DNA from: a virus
Virus record (IMG/VR): IMGVR_UViG_3300042445_000711
Location: 1-64,000 of that record
Reading direction: 5' to 3' (one strand)
DNA: 64,000 nt
Part shown: piece by piece, positions 2,762 to 19,200 of the stretch
How the letters are laid out: every line of letters starts with the position of its first letter
How positions within the stretch are numbered: the first letter of the stretch is position 1
Notes under the pieces: generated by a model
What the model was told of the DNA's origin: nothing
The model's database searches: none
Seen by the model: the letters and a program-made list of their open reading frames with translations, nothing else
Made by a program: the position numbers and the translations under genes

Positions 2762-5700
2762 CTATTCGTAAAAAATACCTAAAATCTGATTTAATGGTGC
2801 AAAAGTTCCTGTAAGTTTATATGTGTTTCCTTTATAAATGAATACAATGCCCTCATTTGGAACTATTTTTTCTAATCCACCAATCGATTGTAATCTTGCT
2901 AATTCTTGTTTTAATTTTTGAATTTTAGTTATATCTCCACTACCTCTTACCTTATCAGCAGTATCTTTTAATCTTTGTTTCATACTAGCAACTGCTGCAT
3001 TTGGATTTGCAGTTAATACCGAATCCATAAATGATAATACATCTGCTCCAACTCCTAAAAATATCTCCTCAAATGGTCTAATGTTTTCTTTTTGTTGTTT
3101 TGCAACATTTACTTTATCATTATCTATTGCCCACTTTTGAGCATCTTTATCAGTAATAGTATTCAAACGGAATGATTTATCACCAAATGCCCATCTGTTA
3201 ATTAAAGCATCTCTTTCTAACTTTTGTAATTTAACTTTACTCTTATCTATAAAGTTTGCCCACCAGGCCTGATGATATTCCGCAACACCATCTCTATTAC
3301 TTAATTGGAATTCAAATTGTAATTTTTGTAATTGTGTTAAATATTTAGTTTGTTTAGAAGCCAATTCTTCATTATTTGGTAATCTAGTTACAGGAGGTCC
3401 TTGAATTGTATATTTTGATTGAACATCTCCATTAACTTGCTTAATCATTCCTGCTAACATCGTTGCTGCCCCTTGATTTGCTCCAACTGCTACACCTTTC
3501 TCATCATAGCAAGTTGTATTGTGGAATACCAATAGGGGTTGTCCGTAAGGTATCACATTTACCGATGTAGGCCAGATAACTTCTAAGTTCATAAAACACT
3601 TACCTTCATCAAATATCTTTTTTCTCTGTGGTTCTGATAACGAACTAATTGCTGCTGATAAATCTTTCATAGCAAAATTGTAAGCATCGGTTAATCCACC
3701 TCTACCTGCAAACTTTGATGCAACATCTTCTATACCCATTGCATTTGCACCCGCATTAGCTAAATTACCTTTGTTTCTTGCTGCAATTAATCTACCATTT
3801 TTCCAACTGATTGCCAGAGCTTGTCCATCGGTTTTTTCTCTAGTCAATTCTAATTTACCAGTTAATGCTCCTGTAATAATATTTTTTAAATCACCAAAAG
3901 TTAATTTCATATCATCAAACGGGTGAGACATGTGTCCGTATGCACCACCTTCTGATATTACAGATTTGTTTACCGATTCATTCATAACTTTACCACCATT
4001 ATTATTAATAAAGTTTTGAATATCAGCCTCATTCTTTGCAACTTCTACATTTTTGTATTTTTGCTTTATTTTATCTATTTCGTTTTGCCTATCACTTGGA
4101 CTTTTCTGGCTTTCTAACCATTTATTTGCATCCGCTCTACTTTTAGATAATTCTATTTCTCTATGTTTCTTTTGAATATTCCAGGGATAATCTTGTAAGA
4201 GAGTTTTATCTTGGATTACTAAAATCTTTTCAATTTTAATGTTTGTAAGAACTACTTCATTCCAATCTGCTTCCCAATGTAATCCATTTGAATTTGAGTA
4301 TGTTTCTTGAAAATCTTTTTTCTTACTCAACATATATCTTTCAGCAGCTTCATAATATTTTTTTATGAATTCAGCTTTTTCTGCATTTGTAATTGTACCA
4401 TCAAAATAATGCTTATTAAACTTTTCTTTATATGGTTGTAATTCAGGTGCAAAATTAAAAACTACATCTTGTTCTCTTCCCAAATTTGCTATTACAGTTC
4501 CAGGATTTACCCATCTTCTACCTTGTTTATCAGGCTCTGTCCACAAATCCATTATACTTTGTGCCAAAATTGTACCTGATAATGCTACCATTACACCACC
4601 TTCTGTCCACAATCCTTTACCTTGTGCAATTTTTCCCCATTTAGTAGTTTTATTGAATGTAGAAATTGATTTTTTAGTTCCTTCTAATGCTGCAACTTTT
4701 GATAAATTTGCAATATCAGTTATGTGTAATGTAGTTGCTTTAATTGGGTTTACTAATTTCTGAACAATATTAAGTGAAAGTGGTAATTTACCAAGCATAC
4801 ATTTTCTAAAAGTGTCTTCTTCCCATTTAATTGCTTCGTTTAAAGATTCTTTTAAAGTTCTTTTTTTAAGAATTATTTGTTGAATTTGTGAAAATATAGA
4901 TTGTATATCTTTATCTAATTGTTTTTCATCTGCACTCATTGGTGATTCAATATCAACATTAGAGTAAAGTTTTTTCTTTTTAGCAATTAGAACATCTACT
5001 TTTTTAATTAAATCATGTCTTACTTTATCTAAATCTTTTATGATTTCTGATGGAGTTTCTTCGTTTACGATTGTAGGAGAATTGGTTTGAAAATCACCTT
5101 TTCTCATTACGGTTTTAGCAATAACTTTATTTGCCATCTTTACAAATGGAATGTTGATATTACTTCTATCGTCTTTAACTACGATTTGATTGTATTTGTC
5201 TAAAAAATCTATGAATTGTTTTTTGTGTCTTCCTAATCTCTTAAAGAAACCAGTTAGTTCTGGTTCGGATATTTCTTTACCATTACGAGTATCATTTACT
5301 CTATCAAAAAAGTGATTACTAAATTCTATGTCAGCAGGGTCTAACTCTCTATCTGCGTATCTTTCAACACTATCCAAATTAGATTGTGTTAATTTTTCAG
5401 TTTTAACAGGTTCGTATCCTCTATCCTCTGTATCTTTTGTAGTTACTTGGTGTCCTGGTTGTTTAGTTCTTTTATCATCAAAATCTATTGTATCTAACTC
5501 AGCAGGATACCCATAATCAGGTGCGTATGCAGATGATTTATGGTGATGATTAAAATTATGGTCAAGAGTTCCGTGAGGTTTGTGATTTTTCGTATTAACC
5601 GATTCACCAATTTTATTTAACTTTTTTTTTTCGATATATTCTTTTAATCCCAATTTATCGGTCATATCAGTTACCTCTTCGTAATCAGTATCTCTTAATT

Positions 5701-8563
5701 GGGCTTCGATTTCTCTTTTACTTGCATTTGGGTCATTACAAACTGCTACTCCAATTTTCTTTTTACCATATGAATTTGCTTTATCCCACAATTTCATAAT
5801 TGCTTTGAAGTGCCAATCGTTTGAACCAACTTCATCAAATACAGATTGTGGATTTGGTTTTGCTTTTTCTCCTCTTGGTATTCTAAATGTAGTTGCAACT
5901 TTACCGTTGATTGTTGGCATTCCGTGGTCATCAGTACCAAAATCTTTTGCTACAACTTTTTTGTTTTTGAATTTACCCATTAAAACAGTATCACCCTTAT
6001 CAACATCTATATTGATGTCTTCATTGTAAATTGTTTTATTTAACTTACCATATTCTCTTAATAATATGGCTGCTATTGAATTTGCTTTGTTTTCAACAGT
6101 TGAACCAGTTGCTCCATCTCTTACTGAATCACCAATCAATCCCATTTCATCTTGCTTTCTATGAACCATTTCATGTGCAATAGTTCTTAAAATATCAGCA
6201 GTTAATCTGCCTTCGGTTGCTACAAATATTTCTTTAGAATCAACATTGTATCCACCCAATGAATGGTTTTGTCTTGAAAACTCAGGGTCTTCTACTAATG
6301 TTACTTTTGGTTGTTCTTTTAATTTTAATCTTTTGGTTGCATATTCTACAAAATTACTTACATTTTCTCTTTTTAATGGAGAAATTTGTTCTTGTATTGG
6401 TTTTAATAATTTTGCCGTTTCAAGTCCTTTTTGTTTTTCTTCCTTTTCTTTTTTAGCTTCTGAATATGATTTCATTGTTTCAAACATCTGTTGTGATGTT
6501 GGTTTGAAATCTTTCATTTTTTCCAAAATAGTTGCCACCAAATTCATAAGTAAATCTGCGTTTTGTTTTGTTTCATCTTCCGGCTTAGCATCTTCGGACA
6601 TAACATAACTCATTGCATTGTGGAATAATTTACCTATATGTGGAACAACTCCTACGGTTGCAACACCAGCTCTTGCTGCTATTTTTTCAGCTTGCTCAAA
6701 CTCAAATCCTGCACCTAATCCTAATGCTTCAAATCCGCAATGTTTTGCAAAATCTACTCCCATATGGCTTACAAATCCAGTAACTCCATGAGAAAGTGTT
6801 TCTCCCGCACCACTAAGTGCAGCTTGCCCCAAACCACCAAGTGCTCCTCCTCCCGCTAAATGACCCATCACTCCACTAACTGCTCCACCGGCAATAACTG
6901 CTCCTGCTATTTTAGCTGCATCAATTGCCGTTGCTTTTGCTGCTTTTTTCTGTTTTTCTGCTGCATCTTTATTAATTCCCCACTTTCCATCTTTACCCTT
7001 TTCGTAACCAAATTGCAATCCTTTACCATGTGATAAAGAAGTTGCTAATGATTTTATACCTTTTCCAGTATTTTTAAGTTGATGATATTTGTGCTTTGCA
7101 ACATCATATGCACCTTTTACCATATTATCTGGAAACTCTGCCATAAAATCCGCAGCACGGTCTACAAATCCTTTTCTAGTTTCAGATTCAGGGTTTGCCA
7201 TTTCATGTGCATCGTGGTGTTCTTCTGTATTAAAATCTTTCCAAAGTGCCGATGCTTCTTTTTTAATAGAATCACTTGCATCATTAAAAAATTCTTTGAA
7301 TGAAGCATATTTTTCAGCTTTTTTATCTTGTGGTGTTTTTTCAGCTGATGATTTTAATTCATCACCACTTAATGTTTGTGCAGGTGGTGTTTGTTCTGCT
7401 CCTTGTGGTGTAGGAGTTCCTCCTTTTGCCTTATCTGCTTTACCTTGTTGGGTTTGTCCTTGTTTAACTGGTTGACCAGGTTCAGAAGGTTTTGCCGATT
7501 GGGTTGCTGCTTTACCTGGCTCAGCAAGTTTTTTTGGTTGATTTGCAGGTGCATCTGTTGGTCCTTTTGCCATTGCATTAGGTTTATCACTACCAACCAT
7601 TTTAGTAGCTTGAACGTGTGCAGGATGGTCTTTTGCTAATCTTAATGCACTCTTAACTTTAATTTTCTTTTTAGTTCCATCTGAAGCAGTATAATCAAAC
7701 TCCTTATCCATAATAGGATTTGGTGCTTCTGTAAAGTATGAATCTACAAACTCTTTAAACATTTCTTCTGCAAGAACTCTATCAATTATATGTCCAATTG
7801 GGTCATATAAACTTTCATTCTTATACCAATCTGGTTCGTCCGATGGGTGTTCTATTTGATGTCTTGTTGGCTTTGGTTCAGGTCTTAATGCAGAAGATGG
7901 TTCTGTGTTATTTGATTCGTTTGCAGAACCAGTTGGTGCTCCATTAATATATCCACCTGGAAGATTTAATCCTGTTCCGATTCCTCCTGGAAAACCATCT
8001 TCATTTAATTTGTTTGTTATCATTTTAAAAATATCTGCATTAAACTTTGGATATGCTTTTAAGAATCCTTTCTTTTTAGATTCATCATCTCCACTACCTA
8101 ACCAATTACGAACATCCGTTCCACTAATTGGACTTGATTCGGCAGGAACTGCGTAAGTATATCCTATCTCATCATAACCATATCCCGTTTTACCTTTATA
8201 TGGTTTAAAATATTTACCACTTAATCTACTTTCATCTTTTTCCCCAACTGCCGCAATATAAGCAGTAGTTTTACCATCAAAAGATGATAATATTTCTTTT
8301 GGAGCATATGGGTTTGATACTTGAATAAATTTATCAGATGGAACATTAAACATTTTAGTTGCAATTTCCTTCTTTTCTTTAAAATCAAATGGAGATTTTG
8401 GACCAGATGTACTATTAGATGTTGCAATATATACATTCTCCTTACCAAACTTTTTAGCAAGTTTTAGATAGGATACATAGTGTCCAGCATGGAATGGTTG
8501 GAAACGTCCTGAATATACTACAACTAAATCCGTTACTTCCGGCTTATCTACTTCTAATTTCAT
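2762..8563 (-). CDS. 1933-aa mosaic protein: HxGH nucleotidyltransferase, Gly-zipper segment, HExxH metallopeptidase-like domain, small domains and a C-terminal ligase-like nucleotidyltransferase
   Basis: Motifs GRFQPFHAGH and ISGTDVR; LRTIAHEMVH; EKTDG...NLEVI...VFH...EGIVF...KLTG. Confidence 0.85.
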   Translation of the reverse strand: MKLEVDKPEVTDLVVVYSGRFQPFHAGHYVSYLKLAKKFGKENVYIATSNSTSGPKSPFDFKEKKEIATKMFNVPSDKFIQVSNPYAPKEILSSFDGKTTAYIAAVGEKDESRLSGKYFKPYKGKTGYGYDEIGYTYAVPAESSPISGTDVRNWLGSGDDESKKKGFLKAYPKFNADIFKMITNKLNEDGFPGGIGTGLNLPGGYINGAPTGSANESNNTEPSSALRPEPKPTRHQIEHPSDEPDWYKNESLYDPIGHIIDRVLAEEMFKEFVDSYFTEAPNPIMDKEFDYTASDGTKKKIKVKSALRLAKDHPAHVQATKMVGSDKPNAMAKGPTDAPANQPKKLAEPGKAATQSAKPSEPGQPVKQGQTQQGKADKAKGGTPTPQGAEQTPPAQTLSGDELKSSAEKTPQDKKAEKYASFKEFFNDASDSIKKEASALWKDFNTEEHHDAHEMANPESETRKGFVDRAADFMAEFPDNMVKGAYDVAKHKYHQLKNTGKGIKSLATSLSHGKGLQFGYEKGKDGKWGINKDAAEKQKKAAKATAIDAAKIAGAVIAGGAVSGVMGHLAGGGALGGLGQAALSGAGETLSHGVTGFVSHMGVDFAKHCGFEALGLGAGFEFEQAEKIAARAGVATVGVVPHIGKLFHNAMSYVMSEDAKPEDETKQNADLLMNLVATILEKMKDFKPTSQQMFETMKSYSEAKKEKEEKQKGLETAKLLKPIQEQISPLKRENVSNFVEYATKRLKLKEQPKVTLVEDPEFSRQNHSLGGYNVDSKEIFVATEGRLTADILRTIAHEMVHRKQDEMGLIGDSVRDGATGSTVENKANSIAAILLREYGKLNKTIYNEDINIDVDKGDTVLMGKFKNKKVVAKDFGTDDHGMPTINGKVATTFRIPRGEKAKPNPQSVFDEVGSNDWHFKAIMKLWDKANSYGKKKIGVAVCNDPNASKREIEAQLRDTDYEEVTDMTDKLGLKEYIEKKKLNKIGESVNTKNHKPHGTLDHNFNHHHKSSAYAPDYGYPAELDTIDFDDKRTKQPGHQVTTKDTEDRGYEPVKTEKLTQSNLDSVERYADRELDPADIEFSNHFFDRVNDTRNGKEISEPELTGFFKRLGRHKKQFIDFLDKYNQIVVKDDRSNINIPFVKMANKVIAKTVMRKGDFQTNSPTIVNEETPSEIIKDLDKVRHDLIKKVDVLIAKKKKLYSNVDIESPMSADEKQLDKDIQSIFSQIQQIILKKRTLKESLNEAIKWEEDTFRKCMLGKLPLSLNIVQKLVNPIKATTLHITDIANLSKVAALEGTKKSISTFNKTTKWGKIAQGKGLWTEGGVMVALSGTILAQSIMDLWTEPDKQGRRWVNPGTVIANLGREQDVVFNFAPELQPYKEKFNKHYFDGTITNAEKAEFIKKYYEAAERYMLSKKKDFQETYSNSNGLHWEADWNEVVLTNIKIEKILVIQDKTLLQDYPWNIQKKHREIELSKSRADANKWLESQKSPSDRQNEIDKIKQKYKNVEVAKNEADIQNFINNNGGKVMNESVNKSVISEGGAYGHMSHPFDDMKLTFGDLKNIITGALTGKLELTREKTDGQALAISWKNGRLIAARNKGNLANAGANAMGIEDVASKFAGRGGLTDAYNFAMKDLSAAISSLSEPQRKKIFDEGKCFMNLEVIWPTSVNVIPYGQPLLVFHNTTCYDEKGVAVGANQGAATMLAGMIKQVNGDVQSKYTIQGPPVTRLPNNEELASKQTKYLTQLQKLQFEFQLSNRDGVAEYHQAWWANFIDKSKVKLQKLERDALINRWAFGDKSFRLNTITDKDAQKWAIDNDKVNVAKQQKENIRPFEEIFLGVGADVLSFMDSVLTANPNAAVASMKQRLKDTADKVRGSGDITKIQKLKQELARLQSIGGLEKIVPNEGIVFIYKGNTYKLTGTFAPLNQILGIFYE

Positions 8564-8589
8564 ATGTATAAATATCTCAAAATTTAAGA

Positions 8590-8715
8590 TTAGAAAGATT
8601 TATATACAAAAGGGTCTCTTTTTTTAAGTTCTTCTAATTTTTTCTTAAATCTTTTCTTTCTTTGGTAATCTTCGTATAATTTTACGAAAAATGAAATTAT
8701 AGGTAAATTCTTCAT
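8590..8715 (-). CDS. 41-aa small protein ending RDPFVYKSF (C-terminal Tyr-motif peptide)
   Basis: Manual translation MKNLPIISFFVKLYEDYQRKKRFKKKLEELKKRDPFVYKSF*. It fills the intergenic gap and is preceded by two ATATTTATA motifs. Too short for the ORF track. Confidence 0.85.
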   Translation of the reverse strand: MKNLPIISFFVKLYEDYQRKKRFKKKLEELKKRDPFVYKSF

Positions 8716-8730
8716 ATTTTTTTCTTTGTG

Positions 8731-8747
8731 TATAAATATATAAATAT
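8731..8747. promoter_or_regulatory. Tandem TATAAATA/TATTTATA late-promoter-like motifs in a divergent intergenic region
   Basis: tataaatatataaatat lies between the divergent genes starting at 8715 (-) and 8780 (+). Confidence 0.55.
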
Positions 8748-8779
8748 TTGATATATATAACTATATAAGTTACATAAAA

Positions 8780-9751
8780 ATGAAGATATTAATTACAGGT
8801 GGAGCCGGTTATTTAGGTTCTGTTATAGTTGGTAGAATGTTGCAAGAAGGGCATTCCGTTATAGTTTTAGATAAACTATTATTTAACCAAACTTCTTTAT
8901 TACAATACACACACCATTCTGAATTTAAATTTATCTACGGAGATGTTCGTAATGAAAAACTATTGGAAAAACTTTGCAATCAAGTAGATGTGATTATTCC
9001 ATTAGCAGCAATTGTAGGATTTCCTGCTTGTGATGCCGAACCTCAATTGGCAAAGGAATTAAATTTGATTCAAATTCAAAATATAATAAAATTTACAAAA
9101 GGTAAAGGTAAAAAGATTTTATATCCAAATACAAATAGTGGATATGGAATTGCAGAAGGTCAATCAGAATGTACCGAAGAATCCCCATTAAATCCAATAT
9201 CAGTTTATGGTTCTACTAAGGTTGAAGCAGAAAGACTTCTAAAAGAACATACAGATGCAATCATTTTTAGATTAGCAACCGTCTTTGGAGTATCTGCAAG
9301 AATGAGAACTGATTTGTTAGTAAACGATTTTACTTATAAAGCAATTACTGATAAATACATCGTAGTATTTGAGAAAAACTTTAAAAGAAACTTTATTCAT
9401 ATAGAAGATGTAGCAAATGCTTTCTTATTTATGTTACACAATTACGATGAACACAAAGGTGAAGTATTTAATGTTGGTTTAAGTGATTCAAATTTAAATA
9501 AACAACAATTATTGGAAAAGATAAAATTACAAGTTCCAAAATTTGCAATTGTTTATGATGATTATTACGAAGACCCTGATAAAAGAGATTACATTGTTTC
9601 TAATGCTAAAATTGAAGCAACAGGTTGGAAACCAACTTGGAGTTTAGATGAAGGTATTGAACAACTTATAGAAGCATATCAAATGATAGTACCAAGAATG
9701 GGAGCAGAATTTAGAAACGGATTTCCATTAGGTTACGCAAACAATACATAA
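8780..9751 (+). CDS. NAD-dependent NDP-sugar epimerase/dehydratase (extended SDR)
   Basis: TGGAGYLG, YGSTK (YxxxK), RLATVFG, RNFIHIED. Confidence 0.92.
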   Translation: MKILITGGAGYLGSVIVGRMLQEGHSVIVLDKLLFNQTSLLQYTHHSEFKFIYGDVRNEKLLEKLCNQVDVIIPLAAIVGFPACDAEPQLAKELNLIQIQNIIKFTKGKGKKILYPNTNSGYGIAEGQSECTEESPLNPISVYGSTKVEAERLLKEHTDAIIFRLATVFGVSARMRTDLLVNDFTYKAITDKYIVVFEKNFKRNFIHIEDVANAFLFMLHNYDEHKGEVFNVGLSDSNLNKQQLLEKIKLQVPKFAIVYDDYYEDPDKRDYIVSNAKIEATGWKPTWSLDEGIEQLIEAYQMIVPRMGAEFRNGFPLGYANNT

Positions 9752-9752
9752 T

Positions 9753-10289
9753 ATGAGTTCAAATTGGAAAGAGTTCGAAGTAACTCCATCAAAAAAATTC
9801 GGAAACGAAGTAGAAATATACACACCATCAATTTATAGAGAATACAGAGGTGAGATATTTACAACATTTCATTCAGAGGAACATCCTGTAATGTTAAAAC
9901 TTACACCATATGTTTCGGTACATGGTAGATTTTCAAAATCATACAAAGGTGTATTAAGAGGATTACATTATGATACTAAAACTTGGAAATTAGTCCAAGC
10001 AGCAGTTGGTGATATATACCTCATTGTTTTGGACGTAAGAGAAGATTCTCCTACCTATGGGGATTGGGAATCATTCATCATATCTGAACGTAACAGACAA
10101 CAGGTATTAGTTCCTCCTGGGTTTGCAAATGGTCACTATGCACTTACTGATTGTATGTTTCATTATAATTTATTTTACGATGGTCAATATGTAGATGCAA
10201 ATGAGCAAGGTGTTGTTAAATGGAATGACCCGGAGTTTCAAATGGAATGGCCAACAGATAAACCAATATTACAAAAAAGAGACAGATGA
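9753..10289 (+). CDS. rmlC: dTDP-4-dehydrorhamnose 3,5-epimerase family cupin (RmlC-like)
   Basis: GVLRGLHY, KLVQ, LDVREDSPTYG, VPPGFANGH, WNDP. Confidence 0.9.
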   Translation: MSSNWKEFEVTPSKKFGNEVEIYTPSIYREYRGEIFTTFHSEEHPVMLKLTPYVSVHGRFSKSYKGVLRGLHYDTKTWKLVQAAVGDIYLIVLDVREDSPTYGDWESFIISERNRQQVLVPPGFANGHYALTDCMFHYNLFYDGQYVDANEQGVVKWNDPEFQMEWPTDKPILQKRDR

Positions 10290-10915
10290 TAAAAAACATA
10301 GAAAATTTCCCAATTGTTAAGGAATCATTGTGGGATAAAGATGGATTGATTGATTTTGAAAGAAGAATAGCAGATGCATGGGAAGGTGGTAACATACGAG
10401 GTCCTATACATTTGAGTGGTGGAAATGAAGAACAAATAATTGAAATTGGAAAAAGAATCAAATCAACCGATTGGGTATTTAGTACCTGGCGTTCTCATTA
10501 TCACGCATTAGTAAAAGGAGTTGATTCAAAGTGGTTAGAAGATGAAATTCTTGCAGGTAGAAGTATCACTATTGTAAATAAAGAAGAAAAGTTTTATTCA
10601 TCGGCAATAGTTGGTGGAACTATTTCAATTGCAATGGGTGTTGCTATGGCAAATAAAAGAAGTGGTTCTACAGACAAAGTTTGGTGTTTTGTAGGAGATA
10701 TGGCATTTGAAACAGGTGCTTTTATGGAAAATTATAAATATGCAAAAAACTTTGATTTACCAATTACATTTGTAGTAGAAGATAATGGTGTTTCAACTTA
10801 TACGCCAACAGTTGAAACTTGGAATGTTAAAAGTGAAATTCCAAATGATGTTATTTGGTATGAGTATGAAAAAGTTTGGCCACACTATGGTACTGGAAAA
10901 TGGGTAGTATTTTAA
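10286..10915 (+). CDS. TPP-dependent E1 alpha-like subunit (short)
   Basis: GPIHLSGGNEE, STWRSH, SAIVGG, and TPP motif GDMAFETG...EDN. Confidence 0.9.
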   Translation: MIKNIENFPIVKESLWDKDGLIDFERRIADAWEGGNIRGPIHLSGGNEEQIIEIGKRIKSTDWVFSTWRSHYHALVKGVDSKWLEDEILAGRSITIVNKEEKFYSSAIVGGTISIAMGVAMANKRSGSTDKVWCFVGDMAFETGAFMENYKYAKNFDLPITFVVEDNGVSTYTPTVETWNVKSEIPNDVIWYEYEKVWPHYGTGKWVVF

Positions 10916-12129
10916 ATTTAGTTTTTGATAAGTGGGATGGGGATTCTCCTATTAATAATCTTGCGCATGTAAATGAAAAATTAGGATACAATGGTATAAT
11001 GATGGATTTGTATTTTTTTGGAATAGATGATAATCTTTATAAAAAACATTATTGTAAATTATCAGATATACATCCAGATGAAAATTATTATTATTTGATT
11101 TCACACTATTGTTCCTATGATAATTTATTTAACGAAAACGAATGGGAATTATCAGATGAAGTTGAATATTATGTTAGACATAAAAATTTAAAAGTAATTT
11201 TTTTAAGTGAACATGAAAGCTATATGGACTTTGATGTTGATGTAAAAAAATTATCAGTTTTAATTGATAAAAAAAAATTAAATCTAAAACAATTTTATCT
11301 TATAAATAATAATTCATTAATTAATGATATACAAGATACTACTTCAATTAATTTGTATAAATCAAATTTTTTATTAGGTCAATTTTCGGATTCGGTATTA
11401 AAAAATGAATATAAATTTTCTTTTATAGAAGATAAACCTTTTTTATTTTTATGCCAAAATAGAAGACCAAAAAGTCATCGAATTGCTTTATTAGCATTAC
11501 TCAAAAATAATGGATTATTAGATTCTGGATTAATAGATTGGTCTTTAACATATGGTTTAATGAATCATCCTTTATTAAATGTATATGAACATCAGGATTT
11601 TATAAATGGTGCAAATGATAAAAAATTATTACACAGTTATTATGAAGTTTGCTCTAAACCAAAATTAAATTTTTATGAAACAAATTTAGATTGGTTTGAT
11701 AATCCAAATAATTATTTACATTTTAGACATATAGAATGTAAATCTTATGAGAATAGCTATATTAATATTGCTACCGAATCTCACTATGAAATAAAAGATA
11801 TTCATATAACTGAAAAATCATTTAAACCATTTTATTTTTATCAATTTCCAATTTTTTTAGCATCTTACAGACATGTTGAAAAATTAAAAAAAGAACATTC
11901 TAATTTAGATTTTTTTGAAGATATTATTAATTACGATTATGATTTAGAAATTGATGATAAAAAAAGATTATATATGGTGTTTGATGAAATTGTAAGATTA
12001 TCAAAATTAGAAAAAGAAATAAAAAGTTATTATATAAATAATAAGGATAGATTTATAAAAAATCATGAATATGTTAGTAAATATGGTTTAAATGAAACTA
12101 CAGAAAGATATTTTTACAATTTAATATGA
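10900..12129 (+). CDS. TEKxxKP-family protein, GT10 (alpha-1,3-fucosyltransferase)-like
   Basis: NRRPKSHR and YINIATES...ITEKSFKPF...PIFL. The ATG at 10900 is preferred over the track start at 10876. Confidence 0.6.
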   Translation: MGSILNLVFDKWDGDSPINNLAHVNEKLGYNGIMMDLYFFGIDDNLYKKHYCKLSDIHPDENYYYLISHYCSYDNLFNENEWELSDEVEYYVRHKNLKVIFLSEHESYMDFDVDVKKLSVLIDKKKLNLKQFYLINNNSLINDIQDTTSINLYKSNFLLGQFSDSVLKNEYKFSFIEDKPFLFLCQNRRPKSHRIALLALLKNNGLLDSGLIDWSLTYGLMNHPLLNVYEHQDFINGANDKKLLHSYYEVCSKPKLNFYETNLDWFDNPNNYLHFRHIECKSYENSYINIATESHYEIKDIHITEKSFKPFYFYQFPIFLASYRHVEKLKKEHSNLDFFEDIINYDYDLEIDDKKRLYMVFDEIVRLSKLEKEIKSYYINNKDRFIKNHEYVSKYGLNETTERYFYNLI

Positions 12130-13313
12130 TGAAATTTTATTATGAAAATATTGATTTTAAAAATGTGCCAAACGGAAATGGTGTATGTAAAATTGCAGAG
12201 TTTGATATTAACTATGGATTTAAATTTCCAATATTTGAATTAAATGAAACAGATTCTATAATTTGGAATTTTTCATTTAATCAAGAAATGCGATACCATA
12301 TATTACAAGACAACATTGATTATTTTAACAATGTATTTAAATTGGTTTCAAGTAAACCAAATGTAAAATTAGTTTTTTCTTCTACTCAAGAAGGAGACCA
12401 TATGAACAAATTTGTTTTAAAATTAATAGAATTAAAAAATTATTATAATTTAAAACCAAATCAAATTGTTTTAATTACAATTAATAACTATTTTAAAAAA
12501 GTTACAAATGAAATATTAGTCATATCAAAACCATATTTGTTGGGGTGGTGGTCAACTCATTATAAAAAACTATCATTACCAAATGTATTTGATGAAGGAA
12601 CTCAAATAGCAAGTGTAACTTCTGGAGTAAATGACTATATAATGAATAAAAAGGATTCATTTTTTTTATTATATAATCGCAATTCTACAAAAACATTTAG
12701 AGTTCAAGTTATGTTATGGTTATTAAAAACAGGATTAATAAATGATACAAAATTTTCACTTTTAATAAAAGAAAATGATATTGATTTAAATTTATTAATT
12801 TCAAAAAAAGAAGAATTAAAAGATTTGTGGAAATATTATTCTAAATTTAATGATTTACCACATACTACTTTAGATTGGAATTATCCAACCGATGAACACG
12901 AACCATTATCATCTAAACCAAATTATTTTAAAACAAATTTTAGTATAGTATTAGAATCAAGTTTTAATTCTGAAAGTTTAAATTTAACAGAAAAAAGTTT
13001 TAAACCTTTTGCAAATTGTCATCCATTTTTAATAATAGGTGATGTGTTTGTAAATACTCAATTAAAAAATTATGGATTTACATTATACAATGATTTAATA
13101 GATTATTCATTTGATAAAATATCTAATAATGAAGAAAGATTAAATCAAGCATTAATTGAATTAAAAAGAATACACTCATTGGGTGAAGAACACATAACAG
13201 ATTGGTATAAAAATAATATAGAAAAAATAGCAGAAAACCAACAAGTATTTTTTACATATGGATACAAAAATATAATTAACGATACAATAAGAGATTTAAA
13301 AGTAATTTTTTAA
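12126..13313 (+). CDS. TEKxxKP-family protein, GT10-like
   Basis: FSIVLESS...LTEKSFKPFANCHPFLIIG, IDYSFD. Confidence 0.6.
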   Translation: MMKFYYENIDFKNVPNGNGVCKIAEFDINYGFKFPIFELNETDSIIWNFSFNQEMRYHILQDNIDYFNNVFKLVSSKPNVKLVFSSTQEGDHMNKFVLKLIELKNYYNLKPNQIVLITINNYFKKVTNEILVISKPYLLGWWSTHYKKLSLPNVFDEGTQIASVTSGVNDYIMNKKDSFFLLYNRNSTKTFRVQVMLWLLKTGLINDTKFSLLIKENDIDLNLLISKKEELKDLWKYYSKFNDLPHTTLDWNYPTDEHEPLSSKPNYFKTNFSIVLESSFNSESLNLTEKSFKPFANCHPFLIIGDVFVNTQLKNYGFTLYNDLIDYSFDKISNNEERLNQALIELKRIHSLGEEHITDWYKNNIEKIAENQQVFFTYGYKNIINDTIRDLKVIF

Positions 13314-13323
13314 AAAATATAAT

Positions 13324-14259
13324 ATGAAAAAAATTTTAATAACAGGATGTAGTGGTTTAGTTGGTATTCATTTAGTAAAAAAATGTTTAGATAAAGGTTA
13401 TAATGTAATTGGTGTTGATATTAATCATTCAAATAATTTACCAATATCTGATAAATTTACATTTTATGAATTAGATTTAACAATAGAGGAAAACATAAAA
13501 AATTTATTTTTTTATGAATCTCCTGATGTTGTTTTTAATTGCTTTGGTATAAAAGGTTCTCCAATTAGAGCAAAAGAAAAACCAGTTGATTTTTTATATC
13601 CATCATTTAAAATTAATACCGAAATAATCAATCAATGTTCTAAAAATAATATATGGTTAATATTTGTCAGCTCCGTTGGTGTATATTCTCCTGCAGAAAA
13701 GTTTGTTGAAGGTGATGTGTGGAAATCTTTACCAAGTGAATCCGATTGGTTTCCATCTTGGTCTAAAAGAATGGGTGAAATATTATTAGAAGCATACAAA
13801 GTTCAATATGGTTATGATAAATGGTCTATTATAAGACCTGCTAATATATTTGGTGAATATGATGATTTTAGCGGTAGTGGTACAGTAATTGCATCAACTA
13901 TAAAAAAAGTATATGAAGCAACAGATTCAATTGAAGCATGGGGTGATGGTTCTCCTATTAGAGATTTTGTATATGCTGGTGATGTTGCCGATGCTATTTT
14001 AAGATTGTATGATGATAAGATTCATACTATAATTAATTTTGGCGCGGGTGAGGAAATTACCATAAAACAAATGATTGAAACTTTAATCAAAATAAGTAAA
14101 AAACCAATATCTATAAATTGGGATAGTAGTAAACCAAATGGAGATTTAAGAAGACAAATGGATATTACTAAACAAGTTCAAATAGGATTACTTCCAGTTC
14201 TTGGTTTTGAAAAAGCATTGGAAATTACATATGATTATTATATAAATAAGTTATTATGA
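13324..14259 (+). CDS. GDP-fucose-synthase-like NDP-sugar epimerase/reductase (canonical Tyr absent)
   Basis: TGCSGLVG, RPANIFGEYD, WGDGSPIRDFVY, KPNG. PSWSK replaces YxxxK. Confidence 0.85.
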   Translation: MKKILITGCSGLVGIHLVKKCLDKGYNVIGVDINHSNNLPISDKFTFYELDLTIEENIKNLFFYESPDVVFNCFGIKGSPIRAKEKPVDFLYPSFKINTEIINQCSKNNIWLIFVSSVGVYSPAEKFVEGDVWKSLPSESDWFPSWSKRMGEILLEAYKVQYGYDKWSIIRPANIFGEYDDFSGSGTVIASTIKKVYEATDSIEAWGDGSPIRDFVYAGDVADAILRLYDDKIHTIINFGAGEEITIKQMIETLIKISKKPISINWDSSKPNGDLRRQMDITKQVQIGLLPVLGFEKALEITYDYYINKLL

Positions 14260-15029
14260 TGTTACACGCATACGGTGATAGTTGGACGGAAGGGCAAGGA
14301 TGTAATAGAATAGTTGAAGATTCCTTATCTAAAGAAGAAAGACCATCCTATCGTAAAGAAAATAGTTGGGTTAAATTTTTAGCAGATAAACTAAACATGC
14401 CGTTTATAAATAATGCAGTTAGTGGTAATGCTAACAATAAAATATTTAATCAAATCGTTTTAGATATTCAATCTGAAAAAATAAAAAGCAATGATTTTGT
14501 TACAATAATGTGGAGTTCTTCTTTAAGAGATTATGTTCCCTTTTTACCAAATGGTGAATGGGTTACGTGGTCTATTAAACATTTAATTGAAGAACCTCAC
14601 AAGTTTATTAATTCTTATAATAGTAGTAATTCATTATACGATTCTTTTTTTACAGAATATAAACAATTTTTTATAGGAGAGATGTTTAATCAGAATTATT
14701 ACAATATTGTAAATCAAAATTACATAATTTTTATCCAAAAACTATTTAAACATTATAATATAAATTATATAATGTGTGACAGTTTTGAAAGTATGCTAAT
14801 CAATTTGAATAAAAAGGATGATATTACCAATTTAATAGATAATTCAAAATATTGGGAATTTAATAAACAAACATTTAGAGATTATTTAAATAAAATTAAA
14901 CGATTGGATATTTGGGAAAACCAAAATGAAGAATTTGAAACGAGAGCATCTCAACATCCAAATTTACAAGGTTATAAATTAATAAGTGAAGAGTTATACG
15001 GTTATATAAAAAACAATAAAATATTATGA
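14256..15029 (+). CDS. SGNH/GDSL-fold protein
   Basis: YGDSWTEG, AVSGNAN, QHPNLQGY. Confidence 0.8.
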   Translation: MMLHAYGDSWTEGQGCNRIVEDSLSKEERPSYRKENSWVKFLADKLNMPFINNAVSGNANNKIFNQIVLDIQSEKIKSNDFVTIMWSSSLRDYVPFLPNGEWVTWSIKHLIEEPHKFINSYNSSNSLYDSFFTEYKQFFIGEMFNQNYYNIVNQNYIIFIQKLFKHYNINYIMCDSFESMLINLNKKDDITNLIDNSKYWEFNKQTFRDYLNKIKRLDIWENQNEEFETRASQHPNLQGYKLISEELYGYIKNNKIL

Positions 15030-16003
15030 TAAATAAAAATTCAAAAATCCTTATCACAGGTGGTTCTGGTTTAGTTGGTCAAAATTTAACAAATAGATTA
15101 ATCAAAGAAGGTTATACAAACATTAGAGTTAATTTACACAAAAGAGGTGTAAGAAACTCTATAAATTCTGTAGAATATACACATTTTGATTTACAAACAT
15201 ACGATGGATGCTTAAATGCAGCAAATGGAGTTGAGGTTGTCTTTCATTGTGCAGCAACTACATCAAACGCAGTTGATACAGTAGATGACCCATTGGCACA
15301 CGTTACACCTAACGTATCGATGAACAATTTTTTAATTGATGCTGCATGGAGAAACTTTGTTAAACATTATATTTTTATTTCTTCAAATACTGTATATCCA
15401 CCAAAAGGAGATGAAGCGGTTATTGAAACTGATTTCTTATTTGATGAACCATATCCTGTATATTTTCCAGTTGGTTGGATGAAGCGTTATGCAGAAGTTC
15501 AATGTGAGTTATATGCAAAACATCTACCTCGTACTATGAAAACAACTGTAATAAGACCTGCTAATTTATACGGTCCTCACGACAAATATGATTTTAATAA
15601 ATGCCACGTTACTCCTGCAACCATTAGAAAAGTTGCAGATGAAATGAATCCTATTCCTGTTTGGGGAGATGGTTCTGAGTTAAGAGATTTACTTTATATT
15701 GAAGATTTTGTTGAAGCATTGCAAGTTGTTTTAGAAAAAGAAATCAAAAATGGTTTTGAAGTTTACAATGTTGGTTCTAATTCTGTGCATTCTGTATTAG
15801 AAGTTTTAGATATTATGAAAGAAGTTGCAAACTATGATGCACCTACTGAATTTATTAGTGGTAAACCATCTATGATTCCAACAAGAAAAATAGATTCTAA
15901 TAAAATTTATAATAATTTAGCATGGAAATCTACAACATCGTTAAAGGATGGGTTAAAACTTGCTTATGATTGGTATTTGGAACATAAAAACGAATTTAAA
16001 TAA
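15026..16003 (+). CDS. GDP-fucose-synthase-like NDP-sugar epimerase/reductase (canonical Tyr absent)
   Basis: TGGSGLVG, RPANLYGPHD, HVTPA, WGDGSELRD. VGWMK replaces YxxxK. Confidence 0.85.
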   Translation: MINKNSKILITGGSGLVGQNLTNRLIKEGYTNIRVNLHKRGVRNSINSVEYTHFDLQTYDGCLNAANGVEVVFHCAATTSNAVDTVDDPLAHVTPNVSMNNFLIDAAWRNFVKHYIFISSNTVYPPKGDEAVIETDFLFDEPYPVYFPVGWMKRYAEVQCELYAKHLPRTMKTTVIRPANLYGPHDKYDFNKCHVTPATIRKVADEMNPIPVWGDGSELRDLLYIEDFVEALQVVLEKEIKNGFEVYNVGSNSVHSVLEVLDIMKEVANYDAPTEFISGKPSMIPTRKIDSNKIYNNLAWKSTTSLKDGLKLAYDWYLEHKNEFK

Positions 16004-16782
16004 TGAACGGTATTATTTTTGCCGGTGATTCATTTACTTGGGGGCAGGGTTTGTATTTTTATTCAAAATTACCAAGATTAGTAGGTCCACCATTCAATGA
16101 ATACATTGGTGATAATGTAACAAAATCACATAGGTTATTTAAAAATTCAAAATCTTTTGCAAGATTAGTTTCAAATTACTTTAACACATTTGAAGTAAAA
16201 AAAGAATCAAATGGTGGAAGTGATGAAGAATCTTTACAATTTATTGATGATTTATTTAAAAATGATTTTACATATAATGATTTTGATTTTGTAATATTAC
16301 AAACAACTCAACCATTTAGAACAAAATTTGATTTTGTTTATGATGGGATAGAATATAATTTAAATTTAAACCCTTGGATAAAAGAATTTTATGAACATCA
16401 AGATATTTTTTTAAAATGGTTAGAAAGTAATAACTACACATATGAGGATTTTGAAAAAATACATATAAAACAAATAGTAAATAAAATAAAAAATAAATTT
16501 ATAGAATTAGAATCAAATGGAATAAAATGCTTATTATTTTGTTGGACAAATGATTATATAAATGATATAAAATCTAATTTGTTTTTAAATGATAGATTTG
16601 TCCAAATAAATTATAATAATGAATTATTTGATTGTTTAGACCATTTAAGTTCAAAGTATAATCAATTTACAATAATAAATGACCCATATTTTGAAGAACC
16701 ACCAAAAGATTTACACACAAGTTTAGAAGCACAAACTTTAATTGCAAATAGTATAATTAAAAAAATAAAAACATTGTTATGA
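16003..16782 (+). CDS. SGNH/GDSL-fold protein
   Basis: AGDSFTWG, NGGSD, KDLHTS. Confidence 0.78.
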   Translation: MNGIIFAGDSFTWGQGLYFYSKLPRLVGPPFNEYIGDNVTKSHRLFKNSKSFARLVSNYFNTFEVKKESNGGSDEESLQFIDDLFKNDFTYNDFDFVILQTTQPFRTKFDFVYDGIEYNLNLNPWIKEFYEHQDIFLKWLESNNYTYEDFEKIHIKQIVNKIKNKFIELESNGIKCLLFCWTNDYINDIKSNLFLNDRFVQINYNNELFDCLDHLSSKYNQFTIINDPYFEEPPKDLHTSLEAQTLIANSIIKKIKTLL

Positions 16783-17327
16783 GCCAACCAGAATATACAC
16801 CATACAAAGATGCACTTACAAATTCAATGAAATTTTTAGGTGAAAAATATAACACCACATTTATAGGGCAACAGGTTCTATGGGCAGGTAATCCTATGAG
16901 TACAACATTAGGAGAAGTTCCTAAAGAAAAAATGATTGAAGTTCCAGTAATGGAAGAATCTCAAATGGGAATGAGTTTAGGATTAGCAATGACAAATGAA
17001 TTTGTTATTACATTTTATCCTCGTTGGGATTTTATTATATGTGCTGCAAATCAACTTATAAATCATGTTGATAAATTACAACTAATGAGTGGTGGAGAAT
17101 GGAAAGCAAATATGATTATTAGATTAGGCAAAGGTAGTGATAAACCATTAGACCCAGGTCATCAACATAAAGGAAACTATTTTGAGCAATTCAAATCTAT
17201 GTGTAATAATATAAATTTTGTTGATTTAACTAAATGGGAAGATATTGAACTTGCTTATAAAAATGCTTACACAAATGGGGGTATCCATTGTTTAGTTGAA
17301 TACCCCGAATTGTATTATATTAATTAA
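16779..17327 (+). CDS. TPP-dependent E1 beta/transketolase pyrimidine-binding domain only
   Basis: FIGQ, EVPVMEESQMGMSLGLA, AANQLINH, GHQH. No C-terminal domain. Confidence 0.88.
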   Translation: MSQPEYTPYKDALTNSMKFLGEKYNTTFIGQQVLWAGNPMSTTLGEVPKEKMIEVPVMEESQMGMSLGLAMTNEFVITFYPRWDFIICAANQLINHVDKLQLMSGGEWKANMIIRLGKGSDKPLDPGHQHKGNYFEQFKSMCNNINFVDLTKWEDIELAYKNAYTNGGIHCLVEYPELYYIN

Positions 17328-18097
17328 ATTTCCCAATGTTTTTCACGTAGTTCGTAAATATTAATTGGTTCTCTTTTCATATGATTACCTTGATTAAAGT
17401 ATGCTCCTTGTTTTAAATAACCCCCTAAAAAGTTTCTTCTAAATCTATTTGAGTTATTTGGTTCTGAACCATGTACACAATGTGAATGTAATAATACAAC
17501 TTGTCCTTTTTTAATTATACCTTCCGATTTACGAAAATTATGACCCTCAGGCATTACACAAGGTTTACCCCGTTCGTTTCTCCAAAATGATGGATTAGTT
17601 TTTGTCCTTTCCTCATCAACTTCAATGGGTAATACAGGCAATCTATGTGAACCCTCATAGTTCCATACTGCACCATTTTGAGAATCATGATTATCTAATG
17701 CTAATGCAGTATTGATTATTTCATTGTGTCCACATCCTGTGTAAAATGCATTTTGGTGCATATCTCTTCCTAATTGTCCAGGTGGTTTAAAATACGCCCA
17801 AGTTTGTAAACCATGTATCTTACCTTCCATTAGAAACTCACATGCTTCTATAATTTTTGGATGAACAAATAGCTTAGCCAACTTATCGGATAATTTATGT
17901 GGATAAGCAAATGGGTCATAATCTCCCCAAAGTTTACCATCATCTGTTGCAGTACCAATTCTTGCTAATCTTAATGTATCCAATTCTGCATTAATTTCAT
18001 CACATTCATCTTCAGTTAATAATTCCAATGTTGTAAATCCTCTGTATCTCCAATCAAATGTAATTTGTTGGATTTCTTCATTTGTAAGATGTTTCAT
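17324..18097 (-). CDS. PhyH-family Fe(II)/2-oxoglutarate dioxygenase
   Basis: YFKPPG..DMHQN, ALD..QNGA, GSH, GQVVLLHSHCVHGSEPNNSNRFRR. Confidence 0.9.
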   Translation of the reverse strand: MKHLTNEEIQQITFDWRYRGFTTLELLTEDECDEINAELDTLRLARIGTATDDGKLWGDYDPFAYPHKLSDKLAKLFVHPKIIEACEFLMEGKIHGLQTWAYFKPPGQLGRDMHQNAFYTGCGHNEIINTALALDNHDSQNGAVWNYEGSHRLPVLPIEVDEERTKTNPSFWRNERGKPCVMPEGHNFRKSEGIIKKGQVVLLHSHCVHGSEPNNSNRFRRNFLGGYLKQGAYFNQGNHMKREPINIYELREKHWEI

Positions 18098-19200
18098 AAT
18101 AACTTTTTTTGTTTAAAATTAAATATTATATTTTTACAATTATCGTTTAAATAAATTAAAAATTCTTTTATATTTTTTTTAGTAAATTCTTTTTCGTTTA
18201 AAAATTTATGCGTTTCTGATTGTATTTCATGTATATTATCACTTGTATAATTCCATAAATTAATATACCTATTGTATTCAAAATATAAAACAGTTTCTAT
18301 TAGATTTTCATTAAATTCATCCAATTTTACGTCATTTATTATGTTTTTTTCAATAAACCATTTTTTTAATAATTCATTATAAAATAAATTATAAGCAGTA
18401 GTACTTGGATGTGGGTCTTTATCAAAAAAATATCTTTCGCCGATTTTTAATCGTTCTCTAGTATATTCCGTAAGCCCACCATAATTATCAGGTGGAGTAA
18501 TATATAATAATTTTCCACTATCATCTTTAATCGATTTTAATTCTTTTTCTCCTGCACAATAATGGCCAATTTCATCATTAATTTCTTTGTATGGGTAAAA
18601 ATTTACAATTTTCTGTAATCTTTCTATTTCATTTTTAAATCCATATTTAGTTATATCGTATGTAAATATATTTGCCCAACCAAAAAACATATAATTTTCA
18701 ACATCATTTTCCTTACAAAAATTTGATATATTTTCTATATTTTGGAAGTGTTTTACAAATATATCTCTATAACCTAAATTTGTAATTGTAATGGTATCAT
18801 CCATATAATCGTATGGATAATCTTTTATATCAATATCTACACCGTATTGAACACTATTATTTGGGCTTCTTCTTAAAAATGCACTTAGTTGTATAACTGC
18901 ATATATTTTTTCATTTGGATAATCCCTTTTTAATTCATTTATTTTTTGTTTTAATTTATCGTGTATAACATGATTTCCATATGAACCCCTTGCTATTGGG
19001 TGTATTTTTACATTTGATATATTTTGATTAATTAAATCCAATGCCAAAAATTTATGCATTTTTATAGCATTTGGTAATCCCAAATGTTGCACATAATGTG
19101 GATTTTCTTTATTTAAAGAATTTATATCAAATTTACCGTCTCTGCTTCCATCATCGGAAAAAGAACATCCTGCAAAAACAATATGTATTTTATTATCCAT
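18094..19200 (-). CDS. SGNH-fold protein (GCS variant)
   Basis: AGCSFS, GSYGN, DPHPS. Confidence 0.72.
   Translation of the reverse strand: MDNKIHIVFAGCSFSDDGSRDGKFDINSLNKENPHYVQHLGLPNAIKMHKFLALDLINQNISNVKIHPIARGSYGNHVIHDKLKQKINELKRDYPNEKIYAVIQLSAFLRRSPNNSVQYGVDIDIKDYPYDYMDDTITITNLGYRDIFVKHFQNIENISNFCKENDVENYMFFGWANIFTYDITKYGFKNEIERLQKIVNFYPYKEINDEIGHYCAGEKELKSIKDDSGKLLYITPPDNYGGLTEYTRERLKIGERYFFDKDPHPSTTAYNLFYNELLKKWFIEKNIINDVKLDEFNENLIETVLYFEYNRYINLWNYTSDNIHEIQSETHKFLNEKEFTKKNIKEFLIYLNDNCKNIIFNFKQKKLL

Follow-up and report, generated by a model that had tools for sequence, protein, structure and literature searches.

In this study we analysed a 64,000-nucleotide stretch of viral DNA (the window; positions 1 to 64,000 of IMG/VR record IMGVR_UViG_3300042445_000711, a 75.6-kb record estimated to be 40% complete) with respect to a 41-amino acid microprotein encoded at the head of its glycan island. 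The peptide is the product of a real and strongly conserved gene, and it belongs to a large, previously undescribed family of phage microproteins that has neither a name nor an entry in Pfam or NCBIfam. Its genetic coupling to carbamoyltransferases is well supported, and the peptide very probably works with this enzyme as a dedicated partner. By analogy with known acyl-tyrosine shuttles, it may carry a carbamoyl group on its C-terminal tyrosine to SGNH-fold enzymes.

Conservation of the peptide gene

The gene and its C-terminal motif are as follows:

8590..8715, minus strand: 41-amino acid microprotein gene (ATG 8715-8713, stop 8592-8590)
8593..8610, minus strand: C-terminal hexapeptide F36-V-Y38-K-S-F41, an FxYxxF at the exact C-terminus (Tyr38 codon 8602-8604)

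The encoded peptide, MKNLPIISFFVKLYEDYQRKKRFKKKLEELKKRDPFVYKSF, is composed of an N-terminal aromatic/amphipathic segment, a basic helix and the C-terminal stretch KRDPFVYKSF. An earlier note on this DNA had pointed to this open reading frame (ORF), ending in PFVYKSF-stop at the head of the glycan island, and it proved to be present, conserved and under selection. It is located in a divergent intergenic region of 217 bp, with the island starting 64 nt away (8780) and running the opposite way, and a gene for a 1933-amino acid protein (the giant gene) starts 26 nt downstream of it on the same strand. The DNA is AT-rich, and the peptide ORF and its neighbours lack a Shine-Dalgarno (SD) sequence.

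Using the N-terminus of the giant gene as query, 80 related viral loci were collected, and the peptide ORF was intact in about 37 of them. Residues K25, K26, L27, E29, L30, K32, R33, D34, P35, F36 and Y38 (KKLxELxKRDPFxY) were invariant among the 25 distinct sequences of this clade, and F41 was present in 24 of the 25. The median pairwise dN/dS was 0.14 (Nei-Gojobori) with synonymous sites near saturation, and over the C-terminal 17 codons pS was 0.64 as against a pN of 0.06; the low dN/dS and the large excess of pS over pN thus identify the ORF as a protein-coding gene under purifying selection. The hidden Markov model (HMM) of the peptide matched its own record with an E-value of 5e-27, and blastn of window positions 8000-10500 against GenBank phages gave no match.

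Metatranscriptome contigs from four lake studies span positions 8508-8720; the strand is not shown and DNA carry-over is possible, so these contigs point only weakly to transcription of the peptide ORF, and not to its translation. Two RNA-library contigs, from two different lake studies, have one end at 8720, 5 nt before the peptide ATG, and reach into the giant gene at the other, which weakly hints that a transcript starts here and includes both genes.

A family of soluble phage microproteins

The peptide had no match in Pfam or NCBIfam (at E <= 10 Pfam returned a chance hit only) and the ESM Atlas was uninformative. A profile search of 1.84 billion cluster representatives retrieved 161 clusters (50% identity) at E <= 0.001, nearly all of 30-47 amino acids; at 90% clustering there were more than 4000 matches, many of which carry the label 'hypothetical protein'. 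The description of the ORF as unannotated thus stands as far as family matches are concerned but not for gene calls, as public metagenome annotations hold the same peptide as a 'hypothetical protein'. The pattern KRDPFIY was found at more than 600 places in IMG/VR as against 12 confirmed peptide loci, mostly on contigs of metagenome-assembled genomes (MAGs), in 185,579 species genomes, and the family is therefore essentially viral.

The family core reads K[KR]LEEL[RK]KRDPF[IV]Y and is followed by zero to three residues. Among 60 diverse members only D-P-F-[IV]-Y is invariant, and the tyrosine is the only strictly conserved nucleophile of the peptide. Most members end in ...FIYK, some in ...FIY, ...IYNH or ...IYKH, and those of the window's clade in ...VYKSF or ...VYKNF. 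As most tails stop at ...FIYK, the full FxYxxF is a feature of the window's clade, and the final F of the hexapeptide is not conserved across the family at large. The members are soluble and basic, with Kyte-Doolittle 19-residue means of at most 0.83 and a net charge of about +8 (+8 to +9). For the window peptide the maximum mean is -0.16 and the charge +8, as against 2.7-3.1 (3.0 in the comparison with the window peptide) and +2 in the bacterial DUF5989 peptides, which carry a transmembrane (TM) helix; a basic helix instead of a TM segment had been predicted and is what was found.

Some members are longer than the rest. The 'long' forms P0166, P0275, P0277, P0279 and P0280 have Q at the expected stop followed by the next gene, which suggests contigs that were gene-called under a TAG=Q code, or stop-recoded phages. 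Most of the apparent long-form fusions were accordingly rejected as read-through (Q at stop) or as truncated contigs (P0277, P0279, P0280, P0275). Two tandem copies of the peptide are present in P0126. P0281 (131 amino acids, 7 member sequences) has two hydrophobic, apparently membrane-spanning stretches and the C-terminal sequence ...KLEELKKRDPFIYKSF. It could represent a membrane-anchored intermediate between the soluble peptides of phages and the TM peptides of bacteria.

Genetic coupling to carbamoyltransferases

The neighbourhood of the family was counted in the 80 best IMG/VR loci, picked by peptide similarity alone; these loci are metagenomic and their lineages unevenly sampled, and locus counts do not equal independent events. 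A carbamoyltransferase was present on the same strand within 2.1 kb of the peptide in 78 of the 80 loci and directly adjacent to it in 74. In 73 loci its ORF starts at the peptide stop or overlaps it, on the same strand; in one it lies directly upstream and ends 10 nt before the peptide, and in four it lies 0.7-2 kb downstream. Two loci were devoid of the enzyme, in one of which the contig stops 630 bp past the peptide. Among the MAG loci, 11 of 12 carried a carbamoyltransferase near the peptide, and the co-occurrence that the earlier note had proposed to test across phages thus holds for this enzyme in viral and MAG loci alike.

The setting of the pair differs among lineages. The arrangement Toprim primase - peptide - carbamoyltransferase - DnaB-like helicase was seen in about 51 of the 80 loci, and at the loci of several other lineages there are genes for glycosyltransferases, radical SAM proteins, a GTP cyclohydrolase or a cytidylyltransferase/isomerase. 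A full-length enzyme ORF was missing in 43 of the 80 loci, which mostly have the Kae1-like N-domain alone (313-340 amino acids, no YrdC-like domain); a few of these ORFs are cut by a contig end. As the peptide accompanies N-domain-only enzymes as well as full-length ones, its contact on the enzyme is probably the Kae1-like transfer domain. The N-domain-only enzymes belong nearly all to the primase/DnaB-like helicase lineage (L122-L197; in L125 the peptide lies at 6001-6102 and the enzyme at 6081-7049), which suggests a different donor or a nucleic-acid target. On a 248-kb contig binned as Flavobacteriaceae (L209:2421-5051) the enzyme is placed between two divergent peptides, ending in ...KRDNFTYKH and ...KRDPFIYKH, and is preceded by an SGNH gene. 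No peptide was found in five records with more distant carbamoyltransferases (L110-L117), which are only 10-42% complete, and a scan of genome contigs with a single carbamoyltransferase as query found nothing.

In the window, the enzyme is encoded far from the peptide:

60917..62611, minus strand: two-domain TobZ/NodU-type carbamoyltransferase, 564 amino acids (PF02543, PF16861; PHROG 'Nol-like carbamoyltransferase')

Both Pfam domains of the carbamoyltransferase that had been reported here are present (Carbam_trans_N 7e-63, Carbam_trans_C 6e-63), and the gene adjoins baseplate genes. Peptide and enzyme are on the same strand and separated by 52 kb in the window, and by 52-56 kb when three complete relatives are included. 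Despite this distance, the two are kept or lost together in the window's clade: the peptide was found in 10 of 10 related records that bear the enzyme and the enzyme in none of five peptide-less records, these records being related and their counts not independent events. G005, G006 and G015, all complete genomes, each encode enzyme and peptide together with an SGNH protein of the type encoded at window position 20284 (described below). G001 (92% complete) has neither the enzyme nor the 20284-type SGNH protein, and what is left of the peptide is a start-less remnant, NYDSIYHNRLRKKLKELKKKNPFIYKSF (…KKKNPFIYKSF), at L003:3888-3974.

In a quick maximum-likelihood tree of 74 enzymes, which is unrooted and has long branches, the enzyme of the window's clade was sister to those of L193, G014 and L209 (SH-aLRT 96), where the peptide is adjacent. 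The peptide-linked phage enzymes fell into two deep groups, and between them were placed the bacterial DUF5989-linked clade and a clade for which no peptide was found.

In at least nine relatives the peptide gene closes a series of sugar genes (transketolase-like, epimerase) on its own strand, one to three genes stand between it and the giant gene, and it is followed by genes for a 390-amino acid protein, a 365-amino acid GCSFT protein orthologous to that of 20284 (31% identical to it in L006) and a 475-amino acid protein. In L008, L012, L027, L032 and L240 the peptide gene ends the plus-arm gene set of the island on the same strand. From the placement in these nine or more relatives it follows that the peptide travels with the glycan island rather than the giant gene; a giant gene with no peptide nearby is present in the sister lineage G014.

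SGNH-like genes beside the pair

The glycan island of the window encodes the following SGNH-type proteins:

14256..15029, plus strand: GDSL/SGNH protein, N-terminal YGDSW (Pfam Lipase_GDSL, PF00657, 26.7 bits against a cut-off of 23.6)
16003..16782, plus strand: candidate SGNH-like protein (N-terminal FAGDSFTWGQG motif only; no Pfam match at E 10)
18094..19200, minus strand: GCSF-type SGNH-like paralogue (hhalign to the 20284 family 92.9%, E 3.7e-7)
20284..21309, minus strand: SGNH-fold protein with a GCSFT block I variant (AlphaFold2 (AF2) model with a predicted local distance difference test score (pLDDT) of 75.7 and a predicted template modelling score (pTM) of 0.83; invariant G8 C9 S10, G53, H320)

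All of the top 50 VIA matches of the 20284 model are SGNH/GDSL proteins (Z 10-11.7, 160-216 residues aligned), and they include TesA and the peptidoglycan O-acetyltransferase PatB (Z 10.5). Four SGNH proteins had been proposed for the island. Three of them are upheld, 14256 through Pfam, 20284 through its model and 18094 as a homologue of 20284, whereas 16003 has the motif only and is unconfirmed.

Across the 80 family loci, SGNH-like ORFs with an N-terminal G[DC]S block were detected in 30 and stood immediately upstream of the peptide in six. Two of the SGNH-like clusters scored above the Pfam DUF6071 threshold and a third had weak GDSL and DUF6071 matches. Triads with the peptide and the carbamoyltransferase occur in these orders:

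carbamoyltransferase - peptide - SGNH-like: G014 (L083), a relative of the window's phage, with gaps of 3 nt and 1 nt
SGNH - peptide - carbamoyltransferase: L128, L140, L179, L187, L198, L199
SGNH - peptide - carbamoyltransferase - second peptide: L209
peptide - SGNH - carbamoyltransferase: L200

BLASTP relatives of the window protein 14256 flank the peptide in five of these loci (L198, L140, L199, L209, L200). In one lineage, peptide and SGNH-like protein are also joined in one chain, a 261-amino acid GDS...H protein with an N-terminal FFGDS block, a C-terminal NHFSPHGN block and a linker of about 40 residues before the peptide tail, which ends in ...KKLEELRKRDPF[VT]YKNF. This architecture is kept in four clusters (57-100% identity) with sense codons throughout. 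The expected linkage of the peptide to SGNH-like genes was thus recovered both as triads in every gene order and as a conserved fusion. The AF2 model of the fusion P0237 has a mean pLDDT of 67, and as the last six residues lie below 50 it is uninformative on whether the Tyr reaches the Ser; Foldseek matched the model to SGNH esterases weakly (about 1e-2). A search of IMG/VR for the fusion (A4) returned N-terminal relatives only, 26-27% identical, and did not find the fusion itself.

Comparison with known systems

DUF5989 (PF19451) was present in 100 of 251 sampled Bacteroidota genomes. The 23 Bacteroidota peptides of this family have 49-55 amino acids and a TM helix and end in APFIY(T/A)(L/I)F, and 24 of 25 DUF5989 loci have a carbamoyltransferase next door, 36-39% identical to that of the window. 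The statements of the earlier note on this family, its PFIY-type ending and its nearness to carbamoyltransferases, are therefore accurate. The phage peptide itself is not a member of DUF5989/SxtK: the DUF5989 HMM (gathering score 27 bits) found nothing anywhere in the 75.6-kb record at E <= 10, and hhalign against 14 DUF5989 sequences aligned five or six residues, [DA]PFIY(K/T), with a probability of 5-30%.

The phage peptide resembles the DUF5989/SxtK proteins in its small size, its C-terminal PFIY tail with the Tyr few residues from the end, its N-terminal aromatic/basic amphipathic stretch and its homologous two-domain carbamoyltransferase partner; SGNH/GDSL genes are often near DUF5989 as well. 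It differs from them in having no TM segment, in its more basic character, in being nearly limited to viral contigs and in that no SxtJ-like partner was seen. As to gene adjacency, the carbamoyltransferase of the window is 52 kb off, and the enzyme is adjacent in most family loci and in G014. SxtJ and SxtK are listed with unknown function and said to act 'in conjunction with' SxtI, and SxtL is a GDSL homologue proposed to be a decarbamoylase (PMC2679770). A search of a library of papers returned none mentioning DUF5989 and none tying carbamoyltransferases to an acyl shuttle.

The FxYxxF acyl-tyrosine shuttle, cited as established background in the earlier note, is indeed published: DltB loads D-alanine on the Tyr of DltX and PatA acetylates its own C-terminal Tyr, and the SGNH proteins DltD and PatB accept the acyl group on a Ser, so that the group leaves the donor enzyme for the Tyr, passes on to the SGNH Ser and ends on the polymer (PMC12148441). 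The window microprotein likewise ends exactly in F-x-Y-x-x-F-COOH, with a Tyr that is invariant in its clade, and it has a genetic link to SGNH-fold proteins, of which the 20284 model matches PatB. However, the phage lacks an MBOAT, nothing anchors the peptide in a membrane and homology in sequence was not detected; the group proposed to be carried is carbamoyl and not acyl, its donor would be a soluble ATP-dependent carbamoyltransferase, and the final F is dispensable across the wider phage family. No MBOAT gene (PF03062) was found at E <= 0.01 in G000, G005, G006, G015 and G014, and the absence stated earlier for the window thus covers its own record and three complete relatives.

A third comparison is the phage 5-hydroxymethylcytosine carbamoyltransferase (MetaGPA), which acts alone on DNA/nucleotides in vitro to make 5-carbamoyloxymethylcytosine and co-occurs with thymidylate-synthase homologues (PMC8670742). 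It is also a phage TobZ-type two-domain enzyme, and many of the peptide-linked enzymes lie, moreover, in replication modules. It differs in needing no partner, and the window's clade shows no co-occurrence with thymidylate synthase and has its peptide among glycan genes. Two complete relatives with enzyme and peptide have no thymidylate-synthase-type hydroxymethylase, and one enzyme-less genome has one.

A proposed carbamoyl-tyrosine relay and its alternatives

The relay that we propose would start with the YrdC-like domain of the enzyme making carbamoyl-AMP from carbamoyl phosphate and ATP, a reaction established for TobZ-type enzymes. The Kae1-like N-domain would then carbamoylate the hydroxyl of the invariant Tyr in the peptide tail (DPF-V-Y38-KSF), the O-aryl carbamate would be passed to the nucleophilic Ser of one or more of the SGNH-fold proteins of the island, and these would attach the carbamoyl group to the sugar polymer that the island builds. 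Such a relay would correspond, in the cytoplasm and without a membrane, to the DltX/PatA shuttle and to the bacterial module of carbamoyltransferase, SxtJ, DUF5989 and SGNH protein. We regard the full covalent relay as the most likely detailed mechanism, while giving it somewhat less than even weight, as the Tyr is the sole conserved nucleophile, SGNH genes recur and are fused through a flexible linker, comparable shuttles have been published, and the chemistry is that of aryl carbamates, the classic carbamoylating agents of serine hydrolases. We infer physical binding of the partners, the covalent carbamoyl-tyrosine, its transfer to the SGNH Ser and the identity of the acceptor. It is a little more doubtful, yet possible, that across the family a soluble carrier Tyr delivers carbamoyl to SGNH-fold carbamoyl transferases acting on glycans, and possibly on nucleic acids in the N-domain-only lineages of the replication module. 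The further claim of the earlier note, that one donor feeds four site-specific transferases, gained no direct support.

Several points weigh against the relay. To our knowledge, no SGNH enzyme transfers carbamoyl groups, and it is not obvious why a pathway in the cytoplasm should need a shuttle. The DUF5989 HMM has no match and the profile comparison aligns [DA]PFIY only; the residues after the Tyr vary, with most members ending at Y-K or at Y itself. SGNH-like ORFs occur in only 30 of the 80 loci, and in the primase/DnaB-like helicase setting, where about 51 of the 80 pairs are found, an SGNH-like gene is near in a minority and the enzyme often lacks the domain that forms carbamoyl-AMP. The enzyme of the window is 52 kb from the peptide. 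SxtL has only been proposed as a decarbamoylase (PMC2679770), and as the 5-hydroxymethylcytosine carbamoyltransferase works alone in vitro, this class of enzyme needs no carrier in principle (PMC8670742).

The alternative that survives best, which we consider rather unlikely, makes the peptide an accessory subunit that acts non-covalently and might activate the enzyme, govern its substrate specificity or gating, or serve as a scaffold for SGNH and other enzymes; its Tyr tail would plug into or shape the acceptor site and would never be carbamoylated. The tight and often translational coupling of the two genes, with overlapping stop and start, is what a stoichiometric subunit would show, the link holds for N-domain-only enzymes and for loci without SGNH genes, and the variable residues after the Tyr would suit a docking tail equally to a carrier. 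However, an accessory role leaves unexplained the conserved SGNH-like fusion through a long linker and the recurring SGNH triads, as well as a PFIY tail common to proven acyl-tyrosine shuttles, and in the window's clade the peptide has moved away from the enzyme to the glycan/SGNH island.

It appears improbable that the peptide is a nucleic-acid tether, in which the basic helix (+8) would bind DNA or RNA and the tail would dock the carbamoyltransferase, so that carbamoylation is directed to modified bases, 5-hydroxymethylcytosine for example. In its favour, 5-carbamoyloxymethylcytosine is a product that phage carbamoyltransferases can make (PMC8670742), the pair sits between a Toprim primase and a DnaB-like helicase in the 51 loci mentioned above, and peptides with a charge of +8 to +9 would be suited to such binding. 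Yet the published enzyme needed no partner, and a tether gives no role to the SGNH fusion or triads. In the window's clade the peptide is in the glycan island and the enzyme beside baseplate genes, and the two complete relatives with both genes lack the thymidylate-synthase-type hydroxymethylase that one enzyme-less genome has; DNA modification is therefore disfavoured for this clade, as the presence of thymidylate-synthase-type genes does not follow that of the enzyme, and the peptide is among sugar genes.

Slightly less probable again is that the peptide is itself the product, a ribosomal peptide of which the Tyr region is carbamoylated or altered by radical SAM/SPASM-like enzymes and which then acts alone. 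Five radical SAM/SPASM-like paralogues are indeed present in the island and similar genes occur at some other peptide loci; a small peptide with a conserved C-terminal Tyr also recalls what we take to be precursors of this kind, such as MftA. The universal neighbour is nevertheless the carbamoyltransferase (78 of 80 loci), with radical SAM cluster c21 in 7 of the loci listed, the peptide has no leader/core organisation, and a fusion to an SGNH-like enzyme would be odd for a precursor. Finally, a cis-acting leader ORF or chance ORF in the divergent promoter region, with no trans-acting product, would fit the 217-bp intergenic location and the position of most family members just upstream of the carbamoyltransferase start, but it is effectively refuted by the strong selection at the amino acid level, the in-frame fusions, the location of the gene downstream of the enzyme in L083 and L193, and its conservation at 52 kb in the window's clade.

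The tyrosine acyl shuttle of DltX and PatA has been worked out recently, and so far for membrane MBOAT-SGNH pathways only. What is new here is a very large phage microprotein family with a shuttle-like Tyr tail and no membrane anchor that is genetically locked to carbamoyltransferases and found repeatedly with SGNH-like genes. If the carbamoyl-tyrosine relay is true, it would carry the principle of the acyl-tyrosine shuttle outside membranes and MBOAT pathways and make tyrosine shuttles a general way of passing activated groups between enzymes. It would add a new chemistry, carbamoyl transfer via an aryl carbamate, as the first carrier-mediated carbamoyl transfer; suggest by analogy a function for SxtK/DUF5989 and sxtL of the saxitoxin cluster; and help to account for the decoration of glycans or DNA by phages. 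On the minimal reading, phage carbamoyltransferases would have in the peptide an obligate small partner that work on these enzymes has not taken into account. As the peptide is soluble, the relay is far easier to test in vitro than its bacterial membrane version.

The glycan island and neighbouring genes

The remaining features around the peptide gene are:

8780..17327, plus strand: plus-strand arm of the glycan island (Pfam: NDP-sugar epimerases/dehydratases, 3,5-epimerase, a split transketolase-like pair, SGNH genes)
2762..8563, minus strand: 1933-amino acid giant gene (ORF; neighbour of the peptide by synteny, dispensable for its context across the family)

The giant gene product has an N-terminal cytidylyltransferase-like HxGH motif (VVVYSGRFQPFHAGHY) and a zincin-like HEMVH motif, and in the distant relative P0208 the peptide and the nucleotidyltransferase domain of the giant gene were called as one ORF. 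With this and the 26-nt spacing in mind, the cytidylyltransferase-like domain was considered as the main partner of the peptide and rejected, because genes intervene between the two in at least nine relatives and the family-wide neighbour is the carbamoyltransferase. Immediately before the ATG of the giant gene (window 8564-8589) there is a conserved GATATTTATA[CT][AG]T motif, found at the same place in many relatives (L002-L076), which may serve these SD-less phages as a late promoter or as a signal for the start of translation.

The five radical SAM/SPASM-like paralogues stand in a row at 21313-28834 on the minus strand (404-522 amino acids, 20-34% identical), interrupted by a 219-amino acid ORF (26794-27453), and genes of this kind (cluster c21) are near the peptide in a few other phages. 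They are followed at 28835-31680 on the minus strand by two adjacent paralogues of 471 and 477 amino acids that are 32% identical to each other.

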